6,654 nt of DNA. Source: a virus. Its lineage: Duplodnaviria; Heunggongvirae; Uroviricota; Caudoviricetes. Below the pieces are notes generated by a model, which was not told the origin of the DNA, did not search any database, and saw nothing but the letters and a program-made list of their open reading frames with translations. This document shows, in pieces, positions 1 to 6,654 of the stretch (positions are counted from its first letter, which is position 1; each line of letters starts with the position of its first letter). The stretch lies in the IMG/VR virus record IMGVR_UViG_2585427741_000004, positions 1 through 6,654 of that record. One strand, given 5' to 3'. A program made the position numbers and the translations under genes.

Positions 1-603
1 GCTTATTACAACATAAGGCAGGAGTTTAATTACTCAACTGAAATTACTGATTTCATGAAAGCGGTATATTTCCTGTATCTCAATCGTCACGGTTACCGTG
101 GTTTATGTCGCTATAACAAGAGCGGGCATTTCAACATTCCCTACGGTAATTATAAAAATCCGTATTTCCCTGAAAAAGAAATTCGCGCATTTGCAGAAAA
201 GGCCCAGCGAGCAACGTTTATCTGCGCCAGCTTTGATGAAACGCTGGCGATGTTGAAGGCGGGGGATGTGGTGTATTGCGATCCGCCGTATGACGGCACG
301 TTTTCCGGTTATCACACTGACGGCTTCACTGAAGATGACCAGTATCACCTGGCATCCGTTCTTGAATATCGATCATCAGAAGGTCATCCGGTCATTGTTT
401 CTAACAGTGACACATCCCTGATCCGTTCGCTGTATCGCAATTTCACTCACCACTACATCAAGGCAAAACGCAGCATCGGCGTGTCAGCTGGCGAGAGTAA
501 ATCTGCAACAGAAATCATTGCTGTTTCCGGGTCGCGCTGCTGGATGGGATTTGATCCTTCGCGTGGCGTGGATAGTTCTGCTGTGTACGAGGTGCGTGTA
601 TGA
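1..603 (+). CDS. dam: DNA adenine methyltransferase (Dam family, GATC N6-adenine MTase), 5'-truncated by the window edge
   Basis: Frame 1 is open from base 1 (no stop before the first Met at 55), so the gene starts upstream of the window. The translation closely parallels E. coli Dam as I recall it: [16 protein letters not shown]...FNIPYG.YK.PYFPEKE...FAEKAQ, then the catalytic motif IV DPPY (nt 277-288), then the HTDGFT and VIVSNSDT blocks. Stop TGA at 601-603. Confidence 0.88.
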
Positions 604-3014
604 GTCATGACGATATGAGCAACTCTAGCGGCTTTAACGAGGCTGCCGCAGCATTTTCATGGAACGGCCCGAAAAAGGCCATTAACCCTTATCTGGATCC
701 GGCGGAAGTTGCGCCGGAGTCTGCACTTTCAAACCTGATCACTCTGTACGCTGCCGATAACGAGCAGGAACAACTGCGCCGCGAGGCACTGAGTGAGCAG
801 GTCTGGGAGCGTTATTTCTTTAATGAATCCCGTGATCCTGTCCAGCGCGAAATGGAGCAGGATAAGCTCATTAGCCGGGCAAAGCTGGCGCATGAGCAGC
901 AGCGTTTTAACCCGGACATGGTCATTCTGGCAGATGTCAGCGCCCAGCCTTCTCATATCAGCAAGCCGCTGATGCAACGTATCGAATACTTCAGCAGCCT
1001 GGGCAGGCCAAAGGCTTATTCCCGCTATTTGCGTGAGACGATTAAGCCATGTCTGGAGCGACTGGATTGTGTACGTGACAGTCAGCTATCTGTTTCTTTC
1101 CGTTTTATGGCAAGCCATCAAGGGCTGGAGGGGCTGCTGATCCTGCCTGAAATGAGCCAGGATCAGGTGAAACGCCTGTCCACCCTGGTAGCAGCGCATA
1201 TGAGCATGTGTCTTGAGGCCGCTTGTGGTGATTTGTACGCCACCGATGACGTTAAGCCAGAAGAAATCCGCAAGACATGGGAAAAGGTGGCTGCGGAAAC
1301 CCTGCGTCTGGATGTTATCCCGCCTGCGTTTGAGAAACTTCGTCGGAAAAGAAACCGCCGCAAACCTGTGCCCTATGAACTCATACCGGGTTCGCTGGCA
1401 CGTATGCTTTGCGCCGACTGGTGGTATCGAAAATTGTGGAAGATGCGTTGCGAATGGCGGGAAGAGCAGTTGCGTGCTGTCTGTCTGGTCAGCAAAAAAG
1501 CATCTCCCTATGTCAGCTATGAAGCAGTGACGCATAAACGTGAGCAGCGCCGCAAGTCGCTGGAGTTTTTCCGTTCTCATGAACTGGTGAACGAAGACGG
1601 AGACACGCTGGATATGGAAGATGTGGTAAACGCCAGCAGCAGCAACCCGGCACATCGCCGCAATGAGATGATGGCCTGCGTTAAAGGTCTGGAGCTTATC
1701 GCGGAAATGCGCGGTGACTGCGCCGTTTTCTACACCATCACCTGTCCGTCACGTTTCCATTCCACGCTCAATAACGGCAGACCAAACCCGACCTGGACAA
1801 ATGCGACGGTAAGACAAAGCAGTGATTATCTGGTCGGCATGTTTGCTGCATTTCGTAAGGCGATGCACAAAGCCGGATTGCGGTGGTATGGCGTGCGGGT
1901 GGCTGAGCCGCATCATGACGGTACTGTGCACTGGCATCTCATGTGCTTCATGCGTAAAAAAGACCGCCGCGCCATCACTGCATTACTGCGTAAGTTTGCC
2001 ATCCGTGAAGACCGCGAGGAACTGGGCAATAACACGGGGCCACGCTTTAAGTCTGAGCTGATTAACCCGCGCAAAGGAACGCCGACAAGCTACATCGCGA
2101 AATACATCAGTAAGAACATTGACGGGCGTGGTCTGGCTGGCGAGATCAGCAAGGAAACGGGTAAATCTCTGCGTGATAACGCTGAATACGTTAATGCCTG
2201 GGCGTCTCTGCATCGTGTTCAGCAATTCCGCTTCTTTGGCATTCCGGGGCGTCAGGCTTACCGTGAACTGCGATTGCTGGCTGGTCAGGCGGCAAGGCAA
2301 CAGGGTGACAAAAAAGCAGGTGCACCGGTACTGGATAACCCGCGCCTTGATGCCATTCTGGCTGCAGCTGATGCTGGTTGTTTTGCCACCTACATCATGA
2401 AGCAGGGCGGCGTACTGGTTCCCCGTAAATATCACCTCATCAGAACCGCTTATGAAATCAACGAAGAGCCGACCGCCTATGGCGATCACGGCATTCGTAT
2501 TTATGGCATCTGGTCACCCATTGCAGAGGGTAAGATCTGCACTCATGCAGTGAAGTGGAAAATGGTTCGTAAGGCCGTTGACGTTCAGGAGGCGGCAGCC
2601 GACCAGGGCGCTTGCGCCCCTTGGACTCGTGGCAATAACTGTCCCCTTGCTGAAAATTTGAACCAACAGGAGAAAGATAAATCAGCTGATGGGGACACCA
2701 GAACGGATATTACCCGCATGGATGACAGGGAGTTGCACGATTACCTGCACAGTATGAACAAAAAAGAGCGCCGGGAACTGGCTGCAAGGTTACGTCTGGT
2801 GAAACCGAAACGGCGTAGAGACTACAAACAGCGAATTACAGACCATCAACGACAGCAGCTCGTCTATGAACTGAAGTCCAGAGGATTTGATGGCAGCGAG
2901 AAAGAGGTCGATTTACTCCTTCGCGGCGGCAGTATTCCATCAGGAGCAGGCTTGCGTATCTTCTATCGGAACCAGCGTCTGAAGGAAGATGATAAGTGGC
3001 GGAACCTGTATTAA
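600..3014 (+). CDS. A: Phage replication initiation endonuclease, P2 gpA-like (HUH rolling-circle initiator), 804 aa
   Basis: 2415-nt ORF. The ATG at 600 overlaps the dam stop (ATGA at 600-603) and has a GAGG Shine-Dalgarno at 589-592 with a 7-nt spacer. The translation carries an HUH-type metal-binding motif, VHWHLMCFM (HWH at nt 1929-1937, residues 444-446), and a paired-tyrosine motif, [12 protein letters not shown] (Tyr at nt 2091-2093 and 2103-2105, residues 498 and 502, Y-x-x-x-Y). These are the hallmarks of phiX174 gpA / P2 gpA superfamily nicking initiators. Size and position match P2/186 gene A. The start could alternatively be the Met at 615. Confidence 0.85.
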
Positions 3015-3083
3015 TTACGCGGGTTAACAATTCGTGCTCTTAATAATACCAGGAATATCAGGCCGATGAACGTAAAAAAACGT

Positions 3084-3110
3084 TTTACATCAGTAAGATT
3101 ATTATATACT
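3084..3110 (+). promoter_or_regulatory. Putative sigma70 promoter for the orf62-dinI cassette (-35 TTTACA at 3084-3089, -10 TATACT at 3105-3110)
   Basis: The -35-like hexamer TTTACA and -10-like hexamer TATACT lie in the AT-rich gap about 60 nt upstream of the orf62 start. The spacer is 15 nt, shorter than the optimal 17. The LexA box overlaps the -10 and the presumed start site. Exact hexamer assignment is uncertain. Confidence 0.35.
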
Positions 3111-3126
3111 GTAAATATAAACAGTG
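3107..3126 (+). promoter_or_regulatory. LexA operator (SOS box)
   Basis: TACTGTAAATATAAACAGTG has perfect CTGT (3109-3112) and ACAG (3121-3124) arms separated by an 8-nt AT-only spacer. It matches the E. coli LexA consensus TACTGTATATATATACAGTA at 17 of 20 positions, and it overlaps the putative -10. Confidence 0.75.
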
Positions 3127-3166
3127 GTTATGTATACAGTATTGCTTTGGTGTCATAGGAGGAAAG

Positions 3167-3355
3167 ATGCAGGACTATTTTTTGGAGTCTTTGAAGCTCC
3201 AGCGCATTGATTTTTTTCTTAAGCTTGTAGCGGCTAGTGAGTGTAGTGATGAAGAGAAGGGGCTGGCTCTGCAGTGGGTTTCTGAATTAACTGATGAACT
3301 CATGGCAAAAATCAGAACCCATGAATACAACCGCTCAATGGATGTCATCAGTTGA
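3167..3355 (+). CDS. Hypothetical small protein (62 aa), first gene of the SOS-controlled cassette
   Basis: ATG at 3167 is preceded by a strong Shine-Dalgarno AGGAGG at 3157-3162 (4-nt spacer). It sits immediately downstream of the LexA box and promoter and is followed 11 nt later by the DinI-like gene. The translation is acidic (SDEEKG, SELTDELMAK) and I recognise no family motif. Confidence 0.55.
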   Translation: MQDYFLESLKLQRIDFFLKLVAASECSDEEKGLALQWVSELTDELMAKIRTHEYNRSMDVIS

Positions 3356-3366
3356 GGTGACTTTTT

Positions 3367-3600
3367 ATGCGCATTGAAATAATGATCGATAAAGAGCAGA
3401 AGATTAGCCAGTCTACCCTGGACGCCCTTGAATACGAGCTTTACCGCAATCTGCGCCCCCTATATCCAAAAACGGTAATTCGCATCCGCAAAGGTAGCTC
3501 TAACGGTGTGGAACTGACCGGACTGCAACTGGACGAAGAAAGGAAGCAAGTGATGAAAATTATGCAGAAAGTGTGGGAAGACGACAGCTGGCTGCATTAA
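3367..3600 (+). CDS. dinI: DinI-family protein (DNA-damage-inducible protein I-like), 77 aa
   Basis: The translation MRIEIMIDKEQ...LDALEYELYRNL...YP...VIRIRKGS...ELTGLQLDEERKQVMKIMQKVWEDDSWLH aligns along its whole length with E. coli DinI as I recall it (MRIEVTIAKT...IDALAGELSRRI...FP...VSVRY...TKEDKQRISEILQETWESADDWFVSE). A GAGGTG Shine-Dalgarno lies about 8 nt upstream. A LexA box upstream is what a DinI-family gene is expected to have. Confidence 0.82.
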   Translation: MRIEIMIDKEQKISQSTLDALEYELYRNLRPLYPKTVIRIRKGSSNGVELTGLQLDEERKQVMKIMQKVWEDDSWLH

Positions 3601-3734
3601 GAAACGTTGCTGGCGTCTGAACTTGCTTCTGGCGTCAGCAAGGTTGAACAACGAGCTGTGCGAGGCGTTAGCTCTGTGGTGCATGTCTATACCGCATGAG
3701 ATCGCATGATCGTTTGAGGATCGTTTTTGCTCAG

Positions 3735-3758
3735 GCCCGCCAGAACTGGCGGGCTTTT
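3735..3758 (+). terminator. Rho-independent terminator closing the orf62-dinI cassette
   Basis: A perfect 9-bp GC-rich stem, GCCCGCCAG (3735-3743) and CTGGCGGGC (3746-3754), with a 2-nt AA loop, followed directly by TTTT (3755-3758). Confidence 0.75.
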
Positions 3759-3803
3759 GCGTAGATCATGCAGGTGCATGAAAACCACTACATAAAGCGG
3801 GCA

Positions 3804-3822
3804 GGCGTGGCGGGGATACGAG
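3804..3822. other. Candidate cos (cohesive end) site of a P2/186-like phage
   Basis: GGCGTGGCGGGGATACGAG is a 19-nt GC-rich motif in the non-coding gap between convergent terminators, exactly where P2-family phages place cos (between the right-end accessory genes and Q). From memory the P2 cohesive end is GGCGAGGCGGGGAAAGCAC and the 186 end begins GGCGTGGCGGGGA. The first 13 nt here match that pattern. The comparison relies on recalled sequences and was not computed. Confidence 0.5.
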
Positions 3823-3910
3823 CGCGCGCAACGGGGTAAAATGGCCAAAATCCGGCACAGCCTCTGGCCCGCTGGCGGCCTCATTTAGTGGAGGGGGGGA
3901 GATGTCAGGG

Positions 3911-3947
3911 CAAAAAGAAACGCCCCGCAGAATGCTGCTGAGGCGTT
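3911..3947 (-). terminator. Putative rho-independent terminator downstream of the portal gene (- strand)
   Basis: On the - strand, a hairpin with AACGCC / GGCGTT outer arms (+ coordinates 3919-3947, with an inner GCAG/CTGC stem) is followed by a T-rich run TCTTTTT (the + strand A-run at 3911-3918). It lies about 36 nt past the Q stop codon. The stem is imperfect. Confidence 0.45.
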
Positions 3948-3982
3948 GTGAGAGTTGGTCGGTTATTGATGTTATGAGTATG

Positions 3983-5023
3983 TCAGCTTCGTTTGCCCTT
4001 AAGTCCTAAGTCATAGGCTTCAAAACGGATAACCTCTTCATCCAGCCAGTCATTCAGCTCCTGCAGTCGCTTTTGCAGGGGCATCAGTTCATTGCGGACG
4101 AAGACACGGCTCGCTTTTTCCACATCCCCAAAGCCGCCAGTGTTGTTGGGAATGATGCCCATCATTTGCGGCGGTACGCGGTGAGCCGCCATCATGTCAT
4201 CGCGGCTGACGTTCTTGATGTTCAGAAATTCATCCTTCGCCGCGACTTCCGACAACGGGATAATCTGAATGCCATCTTTTTTGCCGTTAGGCGAGTACAT
4301 AAACAGGTTGCGGAAGTTGCCCGGTCCTTTAGCACTTTTCATTGCCTTGCGGATGTTGTTCACATCCTCCTGGTTCTGTGCGGCGTCGGTCATGTACATG
4401 ATGAAGCCTGCGTGGCTGCCGTTAATGTAATACTTGCGGCGGAACAGCGTGGCGGATTCGTTGAGCAGAGCTGACGGAATGGCAGAAAGGTAACCCGGCA
4501 GACCATAAATCTCCTGGTTGATATCCGGCTCCATCAGGTGGAAGACGTTACCTTTTGTGAACTGATACGGCTGTGTCGTCAGGCTGTATTGCACAAACCA
4601 GTATGTTTCAAGGTCAAGCCCGCGTCGGGTGTATTTTGCCAGTGCAGGCTCCAGCGAAATAACTTCACCAAAGCGGTTCGTGCGTTTCTCCAGGTAGGCG
4701 TTACCAAAAACCAGATAGTCCTGCACAAAACGGGTAAATGCCTGCTGGCTGAGAAGGCGATGTGGAATATAGGTACTGCTGATAATGTCACGCTTAACAC
4801 TGATCGGGGAGCTGTGGTGCACGGCGGCGCGGAAGGTGCGCGCCAGTCCGTCAAAGCTGACGGGCGGCTCATACCAGCGATCCATCTGTACGCATTCCAC
4901 ATAGTCCAGCAGTTCGCGGCGGTCCAGTACAGGAATGGGATCACCAAAGCTGAAAGCCTCCGCAACGGGTTTTTTAGTTTCTTCTGCAGTTACGGTTTCG
5001 CCTGGCGCGATATGTTCTTTCAT
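3983..5023 (-). CDS. Q: Phage portal protein (P2 gpQ-like), about 346 aa
   Basis: Large - strand ORF whose size and position (immediately downstream of the large terminase gene, next to cos) match the portal gene Q of P2-family phages. The likely start is the ATG at 5023-5021 (MKEHIAPGE...). The ORF track begins one codon upstream at a TTG. The start overlaps the terminase stop (ATGA). Confidence 0.78.
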   Translation of the reverse strand: MKEHIAPGETVTAEETKKPVAEAFSFGDPIPVLDRRELLDYVECVQMDRWYEPPVSFDGLARTFRAAVHHSSPISVKRDIISSTYIPHRLLSQQAFTRFVQDYLVFGNAYLEKRTNRFGEVISLEPALAKYTRRGLDLETYWFVQYSLTTQPYQFTKGNVFHLMEPDINQEIYGLPGYLSAIPSALLNESATLFRRKYYINGSHAGFIMYMTDAAQNQEDVNNIRKAMKSAKGPGNFRNLFMYSPNGKKDGIQIIPLSEVAAKDEFLNIKNVSRDDMMAAHRVPPQMMGIIPNNTGGFGDVEKASRVFVRNELMPLQKRLQELNDWLDEEVIRFEAYDLGLKGKRS

Positions 5024-6654
5024 CAAAAAATCTCCACAATATTGCTGGTATTGGCGGACTCGCCCTGCAGCGGTTCGTTAAACAGTGCGTGCATTGTTGC
5101 CCAGGCCAGATCGGCATGGCTGGCTTCTTCGCTGCGGCTGGCTTCATAGGTCGGGCGGTTGCCACTGGCAGTGGTAGCGCGACGGATTGCCATAAATGAC
5201 TGCGCAATGTCGGTGTGCCCGGCGTCAAACTCCAGACGGCGGTGGCTGATAATGTCGTAGGCCTTGAGTACCAGGGCGTTTTTAACGTTGGGGTTGTAGA
5301 CAAACTCCCTGACGGCAGGAAAAAACGCTTTCACGTTCTCGTAAACCCCGTGACCGACGCCGGTCGAGTCGATGCCGATATAGGTCACGTTGTACTGTTC
5401 GGTCAGTTTTTTGATGGCGTCAGCCTGGGCGCGGAAGTCCATTCCGCGCCACTGGTGACGCTCAAGAATGCGGAACTTACCGCCCGGCACGGCTGGCGGC
5501 GCCACCACCACGCATCCGGCGCTGTCGCCGTTCTGCGTACCTTTCGCCGGGTCATAACCGATCCACACTTCGCGCCAGCCAAACGGGCGCAGGGCCAGTG
5601 CATGAAAGTCGGTCCAGACTTCCCAACTGTCCACCATGCACGCCTGCAGCTCGCTGAGTGGGAACACAGACGCGAGATCGTCCACGAACTCACACATCAG
5701 CAGGTTCTGGTATTCGTCCGGGCTGTACTCCATGCGCAACTGGTCGAGGTCGAACAGGTTACAGCCGCCGCGCACCGCATCTTCCACAGTGACTATCTGG
5801 CGGTACTGCCCGTCTGCGCACAGCAGGCCGGGGGCCAGATTGCTGTGGGACCGGTCGATGTCCACCTTATCGGCTTTGTTGCGCCCTCGGTTGAACAGCG
5901 CACCGGACCAGAACGGATAAGCACTGTGTGTCAGGCTGGATGGCGTGGAAAAATAGGTTTGTCGCCATTTTTTGTGAATAGCCATACCGGAAGCCACTTT
6001 GCGCAGCTCCTGGAATTTCGGTATCCAGAAATATTCATCCAGATACAGGTTGCCGTGGTAACTCTGGGCCGTGCGGGCATTGGTGCCGAGGAAGTACAGC
6101 GTGGCCCCGTTAGGAAGCACCATCGGATCGCCTTTCAGCTCCACCTCCACTTCTTTGGCGAAGTCGATGATGTACTGCTTAAAGACGTGGGCCTGAGCCT
6201 TGCTGGCGGAAAGGAAAATCTGGTTACGCCCGGTTAGCAGGGCGTCAATCAGGGCTTCACGGGCAAAATAGAAGGTCGCACCGATCTGGCGTGACTTCAG
6301 CAGGTTGCGGATGCGGTTGGTTTTTCCGGCTTCCCACCAGTGGCGCTGGTAGTTGAACATGGAGGAATGGAAGATTTCTTCCAGCTTCTCAATCTGTTCA
6401 TCGGTGAAAACGTTCTTTTCCGGCTGACGACGCGGGCCTTTGTTGCGGTTGGCGACGTTAGGGTTTAAGTCGGCTTCGTTGCCGCCATTGTTAAACTTGC
6501 CGATCCGCGCATGGCGCTCCGACTGGCGCGCCAGCAGGTCAATCTCTTTGAAATCTTTCCCTTCTTTGTGCTCCTTCATAATGAGCTGGCAGTAGCGTGC
6601 GGCGGTGGTGAGCTGCATCTGATCCAGCGGCCCATAGTCACCCCACTTGTCGCG
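5023..6654 (-). CDS. P: Terminase large (ATPase) subunit, P2 gpP-like, N-terminus beyond the window
   Basis: The - strand frame is open from the window edge (6654) to a TGA stop at 5025-5023. The 12 codons upstream of the first in-window Met (6618) contain no stop, so the true start lies outside the window. Gene order P then Q on the same strand, with coupled stop/start, matches the P2 late operon. The assignment rests on size, synteny and overall resemblance to P2-family terminases; I did not verify a Walker motif. Confidence 0.75.
   Translation of the reverse strand, partial: RDKWGDYGPLDQMQLTTAARYCQLIMKEHKEGKDFKEIDLLARQSERHARIGKFNNGGNEADLNPNVANRNKGPRRQPEKNVFTDEQIEKLEEIFHSSMFNYQRHWWEAGKTNRIRNLLKSRQIGATFYFAREALIDALLTGRNQIFLSASKAQAHVFKQYIIDFAKEVEVELKGDPMVLPNGATLYFLGTNARTAQSYHGNLYLDEYFWIPKFQELRKVASGMAIHKKWRQTYFSTPSSLTHSAYPFWSGALFNRGRNKADKVDIDRSHSNLAPGLLCADGQYRQIVTVEDAVRGGCNLFDLDQLRMEYSPDEYQNLLMCEFVDDLASVFPLSELQACMVDSWEVWTDFHALALRPFGWREVWIGYDPAKGTQNGDSAGCVVVAPPAVPGGKFRILERHQWRGMDFRAQADAIKKLTEQYNVTYIGIDSTGVGHGVYENVKAFFPAVREFVYNPNVKNALVLKAYDIISHRRLEFDAGHTDIAQSFMAIRRATTASGNRPTYEASRSEEASHADLAWATMHALFNEPLQGESANTSNIVEIF

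Follow-up and report, generated by a model that had tools for sequence, protein, structure and literature searches.

Does the open frame that begins at the first base of this prophage DNA and runs into the replication initiator gene A belong to an intact Dam methyltransferase acting on GATC, and is synthesis of the initiator tied to its translation? A sequence-only reading of the locus had proposed a phage-encoded Dam translationally coupled to the initiator. Here, we set this proposal against profile searches, related assemblies, and a census of gene A loci in other species. The DNA analysed, referred to as the window, comprises 6654 bp and is the complete contig JOQG01000070.1 (assembly GCA_000713975.1). 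As the contig is included from end to end, base 1 marks the edge of the assembly, and dam is cut there by the end of the contig rather than by decay.

Setting of the locus in a P2-family prophage

The gene-level content of the window is as follows:

1 to the TGA at 601-603, plus strand: open frame (frame 1, 200 codons; ORF scan) containing the 3' two-thirds of dam, codons 86-285 of 285 plus the TGA stop (PF02086)
600-3014, plus strand: gene A, an 804-codon ORF for a P2/186-type rolling-circle replication initiator (nickase) of 804 aa (ORF scan, PF05840)
3167-3355: 62-codon ORF (phrog_698, unknown function)
3367-3600: DinI homologue (profile match)
3804-3822: cos-like 19-mer
3983-5023, minus strand: portal gene
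5023 to past the contig end, minus strand: large-terminase gene

These features identify the window as the stretch of a P2-family prophage in which the replication genes meet the packaging genes. The product of gene A matches PF05840 (Phage_GPA) over the entire model (E 3.5e-128, positions 1-321 of 321), and its H438, H444, H446, Y498, and Y502 are among the His and Tyr residues that do not vary when the protein is aligned with P2 A, 186 A, and HP1 Rep. At the DNA level, the window shares 95-97% identity with Felsduovirus/Elveevirus-type phages of Klebsiella, Salmonella, and Escherichia as well as with E. coli prophages; 1131 of 5426 complete genomes of E. coli, about one fifth, contain at least 80% of it, and bases 1-3100 are covered to at least 80% by 50 of the 72 matching phage records. 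We consider it probable that dam belongs to the early lytic operon of a 186/Fels-2-like P2-family (Peduoviridae) prophage in an enterobacterial genome. The explanation of which this is a part, namely an intact dam in an operon, coupled to A, methylating GATC, and having the role described below, is one that we hold with good confidence as a whole.

The gene upstream of A is assigned to the Dam family

Based on profile matches, bases 1-603 are assigned to a Dam-family (D12-class) N6-adenine DNA methyltransferase. The 200-residue fragment encoded in the window matches PF02086 with 165.2 bits against a cut-off of 22 (E 2.9e-48) over model positions 88-253 of 253, so that the N-terminal third alone is missing from the fragment. 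The full-length protein is available from the sister contig JOQF01000013.1 (L004, 116 kb), which has a gpA identical to that of the window and differs from it by four mismatches in 6654 positions, none of them in 1-603. On this contig, the complete 285-codon dam lies at 5147-6004 with its N-terminal domain intact, and the encoded protein scores 321.1 bits against TIGR00571 (cut-off 114.85; model positions 1-266 of 267). An E. coli relative that is 97% identical matches the E. coli Dam structures (PDB 2G1P, 4GOL) over residues 4-263 (E 5e-73), a match that settles the fold, and it also matches DpnM (E 9e-34) and T4 Dam (E 6e-17). The proposal of a Dam methyltransferase in a P2-family phage is thus borne out by PF02086, TIGR00571, and the Dam structures alike. 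The full-length protein, with 284.9 bits, remains below the cut-off of 441 for the chromosomal Dam equivalog NF008152, and the phage protein is accordingly best classified from these scores as a Dam-family member other than the host-type orthologue.

The sequence-only reading had named a missing or broken N-terminal SAM-binding domain as the finding that would argue against it. The window by itself contains codons 86-285 alone, and one species-level relative (L020) carries a 69-aa dam remnant before A, both of which would suit a 5'-truncated dam pseudogene. However, base 1 is the edge of the assembly, and two other assemblies with the same gpA protein contain the complete 285-codon dam, one of them identical to the window over 1-603; together with the intact 285-aa protein of the sister contig, these data make a pseudogene highly improbable. 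In the alignment of the sister-contig protein, the equivalents of W7, F32, G34, and D51 in the N-terminal AdoMet region are conserved while the second glycine is replaced by C36, and from this alignment the AdoMet-binding region is judged to be intact.

Conserved residues and likely specificity

Pairwise mapping to E. coli Dam (46.9% identity over 254 aligned residues) locates two functional elements within the window:

94-156, plus strand: codons of the DNA-contact loop (equivalents of E. coli Dam Y119-K139)
280-291, plus strand: catalytic motif IV DPPY (GAT CCG CCG TAT), D179-P-P-Y182 (from the translation and the mapping)

We take the roles of the E. coli Dam residues to be those in the published E. 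coli Dam-DNA structures (PDB 2G1P, 4GOL). The equivalents of K9, W10, F35, G37, D54, Y119, L122, R124, P134, Y138, K139, and DPPY are kept. The loop of the phage protein includes Y117, R118, L120, R122, P132, N135, Y136, and K137, of which the Y, L, R, P, Y, and K residues are identical to those of E. coli Dam while N120 is changed to R and R137 to N. The third position unlike E. coli Dam is G39, which is C in motif I; this motif, which lies outside the window and was read in the sister contig, is F-A-G-S-C rather than F-x-G-x-G.

E. coli Dam, DpnM, and T4 Dam all methylate GATC. Because the three closest solved homologues are GATC enzymes, the adenine of GATC is most likely the target also of the phage enzyme as judged by homology. 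The alternative is a methylase without activity or with a recognition sequence different from GATC, and the deviating motif I, the changed N120 and R137 equivalents, and the score below the chromosomal Dam equivalog cut-off all point in this direction, as does the fact that PF02086 includes enzymes with target sites other than GATC. Against it stand the overall identity to E. coli Dam, the conservation of the base-contacting K9, L122, R124, and P134 equivalents and of DPPY, and the GATC specificity of the closest solved homologues; moreover, dam is intact across species in which the Dam proteins are 46-94% identical, which argues for purifying selection. We therefore regard an inactive or differently specific enzyme as very unlikely, and a GATC-methylating Dam as the preferred reading. 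The literature search found no experiment on this Dam or any close relative.

The window contains 27 GATC sites compared with 23.7 expected. Because GATC is present at its expected density, phage DNA is a substrate for a GATC methylase; the same unremarkable numbers led us to discard the idea that Dam-related selection shows up as an excess or shortage of GATC.

The dam-A junction in the early operon

The junction between the two genes is formed by the following elements:

589-594, plus strand: Shine-Dalgarno (SD) sequence GAGGTG for A (identified by its anti-SD duplex), lying in the last dam codons (E-V of the C-terminal YEVRV)
600-603, plus strand: ATGA, in which the A start codon ATG (600-602) overlaps the dam stop codon TGA (601-603)

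The claim that the dam stop and the A start share ATGA agrees with the ORF calls, and RefSeq annotates the same 4-nt overlap in three relatives (RE-2010, Cartapus, and E. coli O177:H21). Equally, the ribosome-binding site of A does lie within dam, as had been proposed: GAGGTG ends 5 nt before the A ATG and pairs with the anti-SD sequence at -7.2 kcal/mol. In relatives, the SD codons GAG GTG (E-V) are swapped for GGA GTG (G-V) and a GGAG or GAGG core stays, and this retention of the SD core despite the change from E to G suggests, at the level of sequence comparison, selection on the RNA signal.

On the sister contig, the operon has the order DUF2732, TraR/DksA zinc-finger gene, dam, and A, with overlaps of 1, 4, and 4 nt at the three junctions, and the same gene order and overlaps are found in RE-2010, Cartapus, and E. 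coli O177:H21. The junction of traR with dam (GGAGGTGCTGTATGA) is built like that of dam with A (CGAGGTGCGTGTATGA), with GGAGGTG as the SD sequence before ATGA in the former and GAGGTG in the latter. A consensus scan of the plus strand found no promoter-like or terminator-like site in 1-700, and none separates dam from A. Phage 186 has an annotated terminator, tM1, early in A, whereas a terminator scan of the plus strand over 600-1500 found no counterpart in the window. We also considered RNA structure that masks the A start and rejected it, as the region 540-680 folds at -41.2 kcal/mol compared with -42.3 kcal/mol for shuffled sequences (z = 0.29).

From this arrangement, we infer that the early operon would be transcribed as a single mRNA after prophage induction or infection. 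Ribosomes finishing dam would stop at the UGA at 601-603 and re-initiate at, or be handed over to, the AUG at 600-602, aided by GAGGUG, such that production of A would depend in time and place on translation of the upstream gene, and Dam and the initiator would appear together. Dam would then methylate GATC on the rolling-circle products, keeping the rapidly replicating phage DNA fully methylated even when host Dam is limiting or absent, and fully methylated progeny would escape MutH and restriction enzymes specific for unmethylated GATC. Such a protective role is likely in analogy to other Dam enzymes of phages; a counter-point is that all likely hosts already have Dam.

Translational coupling or genome compaction

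To place the junction in a wider frame, we used the best 80 gpA loci in species-representative genomes, in 74 of which the upstream ORF was examined. An [A/G]TGA overlap of 4 nt is present at the A start in 32 of these 74 species-level loci, whatever the family of the upstream gene, and at 11 of the 15 dam-A junctions. As the 15 junctions are independent and come from other species, the overlap shared by 11 of them cannot be put down to chance. According to the same census, this coupling geometry is tied to gene A, whichever gene precedes it, and does not reflect a special link between dam and A.

The main alternative to coupling is that the 4-nt overlap reflects genome compaction only, with A being translated independently from its own strong SD sequence, dam being a passenger (moron), and dam translation having no effect on the level of A. 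The well-spaced GAGGUG with its pairing energy of -7.2 kcal/mol fits this alternative, as does the lack of masking RNA structure (z = 0.29); with an RNA fold at the junction no stronger than that of shuffled sequences and a strong SD sequence, A could also initiate de novo without coupling. In addition, in relatives with a TraR-type neighbour, the A start lies 0 to +16 nt away, so that A can work without an overlap. On the other hand, in phage 186, where an identical ATGA joins orf84 to A, a remark in the GenBank record holds that A protein apparently cannot be made unless orf84 is translated through to its end. A separate study describes ATGA pairs tested in E. coli as strictly coupled in most cases (PMC6728339), and the overlap is kept at most dam-A junctions even though the Dam proteins of the most distant pairs are only 46-54% identical. 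With the geometry of the junction and the precedent of phage 186 taken together, we consider real translational coupling between dam and A to be likely, and we consider compaction with independent translation of A to be unlikely, although it is the weightiest of the alternatives. ATGA-type overlaps such as that between dam and A are the commonest kind of gene junction in bacteria.

A variable gene position before A

It had also been suggested that dam is a lineage-specific accessory gene that not all P2-family phages carry, and both suggestions hold. P2, 186, and HP1 have no D12 Dam before A: in P2 the position is taken by a DUF5405 gene, in 186 by a PAPS-reductase-domain gene, and in HP1 an 86-aa orf9 without a Pfam match lies directly before rep. 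Among the 74 loci of the census, the upstream neighbours of A are distributed as follows:

TraR-type zinc finger (no insert): 16 loci
D12 Dam: 15 loci (one of them the 69-aa remnant)
PAPS-reductase-like: 7 loci
DUF3850/ASCH: 4-5 loci
C5-cytosine methylase: 4 loci
DUF5405: 3-4 loci
DUF2732: 3 loci
Small unknowns: the remaining loci

Thus, a gene for a modification-type enzyme lies directly before A in 26 of 74 loci (the Dam genes including the remnant, the PAPS-reductase-like genes, and the C5 methylases), and at the majority of dam and PAPS-reductase junctions the overlap with A is 1-11 nt long. The identity of the upstream gene does not follow that of gpA, as illustrated by the following loci (gpA identities of the first three entries by tblastn):

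L010, L012, and L013: gpA 82% identical, no dam before A
L017: gpA 84% identical, PAPS-reductase-like gene before A
L020: gpA 87% identical, dam remnant before A
L054: Dam 72% identical, gpA 37% identical
L015: Dam 63% identical, gpA 79% identical

Because the Dam and gpA identities are discordant in L054 and L015, the sequence comparison indicates cassette exchange at the position before A. When window 600-660 is compared with L010-L020, the initial 15-20 codons of gpA lack the conservation of the remaining protein and co-vary with the type of upstream gene: the N-terminus reads MSHxDM with the dam type found here, MSKFT with a second dam type, and VMPELT next to traR. Conservation of A sets in at an AF(S/A)WNxPKKA motif, and because of the co-variation we place the boundary of the cargo cassette just inside A, before this motif.

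The dam remnant mentioned above is located in a Serratia prophage (L020 3765-3974), where 69 codons of dam precede A and end in GAGGTG and a GTGA that overlaps the A start. By its sequence, this locus appears to be a case in which the coupling end of dam outlived the loss of the enzyme.

A further observation concerns Orf84 of phage 186 (L008 2104-3108), which is recorded as being of "unknown function, not essential" and which matches PF01507 (E 1.2e-43). The Orf84 family lies directly before gpA in seven loci (L017, L027, L031, L065, L067, L071, and L072), with overlaps into A of 1-11 nt. In BREX type 4, PAPS-reductase domains produce phosphorothioate DNA (PMC12914056), and by analogy Orf84-type PAPS-reductase genes may be another DNA-modification cargo.

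One could go further and read the position between the TraR-like gene and A as a dedicated exchangeable slot for DNA-modification enzymes, with Dam, C5-cytosine methylase, and a PAPS-reductase/DndC-like protein among those it receives, that forms a "modify before you replicate" interlock. Each cassette would bring its own SD sequence, [A/G]TGA overlap, and first 15-20 codons of A, and the initiator would be made only on messages whose modification gene had just been translated. If true, this would be a small principle of phage genome design in which replication is tied to the prior synthesis of a modifying enzyme, and it would provide a handle on the role of 186 Orf84-type PAPS-reductase proteins. 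We regard this extension as doubtful, and less probable than the compaction alternative discussed above. As it stands, dam matters little: it is an accessory gene, annotated as a matter of routine, in a prophage family that is very common. Its wider interest is limited to the census, in which one DNA-modification gene or another is found time and again directly before A, with the coupling signal moving along with the cassette.

Comparison with known systems

The dam gene, its position, and its overlap with gpA are already known and are annotated in dozens of phage records. In phages and prophages of the Felsduovirus/Elveevirus type, including Salmonella phage RE-2010 (gp10), Escherichia phage Cartapus (gp42), the Klebsiella phages ST11-VIM1phi8.4 and KP12, and E. 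coli (WP_000104175.1), an annotated dam of the same 858-bp length lies upstream of gpA with the 4-nt overlap and with the TraR/DksA gene upstream. Relative to these, the DNA of the window is 95-97% identical with point differences only, and its SD codons are GAG GTG (E-V) where the relatives have GGA GTG (G-V).

Compared with the chromosomal Dam of E. coli, the phage protein has the same fold family and domain order, and GATC is the expected target. Unlike E. coli Dam, it has a 22-residue C-terminal tail, the codons of which bear the SD sequence and the overlap with A, and its loop after DPPY is shorter. Moreover, the phage gene resides in the lytic operon of a repressed prophage whereas the E. 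coli gene is part of the host dam operon.

The only experimental precedent for the proposed coupling is, by analogy, the orf84-A pair of phage 186, in which a gene in the same place directly upstream of A shares the same ATGA, while the upstream product is a PAPS-reductase-domain protein and not a methylase. Orphan adenine methylases, as here, are also found in T4 and T2 (Dam), P1 (Dmt), and HP1 (orf13). T4 Dam and P1 Dmt are homologous to the Dam of the window, but in T4 and P1, which are unrelated phages, dam has no linkage to a replication initiator; the Dam of HP1, the P2-family member known to carry one, belongs to another family (PF05869) and is encoded downstream, not upstream, of rep.

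Published work on Dam in enterobacterial prophages was also considered. M.EcoMIV of E. coli EC958, for which expression data are available (PMC4659465), was rejected as evidence for the present dam, as its prophage Phi2 is Mu-like and not P2-like. A K. pneumoniae methylome paper (PMC9684165) and a review of Salmonella prophages (PMC7380047) contain nothing on a P2-type phage dam; the latter describes that excision of SopEPhi is favoured by host Dam.

Other features of the window

Downstream of A, an AT-rich gap of 150 bp (3015-3166) separates the gpA stop from the 62-codon ORF (phrog_698) and DinI. This gap contains a perfect LexA-box core, CTGT-N8-ACAG (CTGTAAATATAAACAG), at 3109-3124, with a chance expectation of 0.07. 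Together, the LexA box, the 62-codon ORF, and DinI resemble an operon under SOS control, a counterpart of p95-tum in phage 186, and because of this resemblance the 62-aa protein may be an antirepressor.

After DinI and just before cos, the plus strand contains a strong hairpin at 3735-3759 (GCCCGCCA-GAAC-TGGCGGGC, followed by TTTTG), which reads as a putative intrinsic terminator ending rightward transcripts; the consensus terminator scan omitted it because its T-run is short. The cos-like 19-mer at 3804-3822 (GGCGTGGCGGGGATACGAG) is of the 186 type. To its left, GATC sites are present at 3700, 3708, 3719, and 3764, and a GATC pair at -96/-85 from the 19-mer is shared by more than 20 P2-like loci from various species irrespective of whether they carry dam, while being absent from loci with a P2-type cos. 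We considered that the cluster is linked to the phage dam, in analogy to P1 pac, and rejected this idea as the -96/-85 pair is also kept in relatives that lack dam; the pair may instead be part of a terminase recognition element. Finally, the cargo position between cos and the portal gene (3823-3982, ~160 bp) is empty in the window; in Salmonella phage RE-2010 (L001 9583-11471), it is occupied by a 1.7-kb AIPR-family abortive-infection gene.
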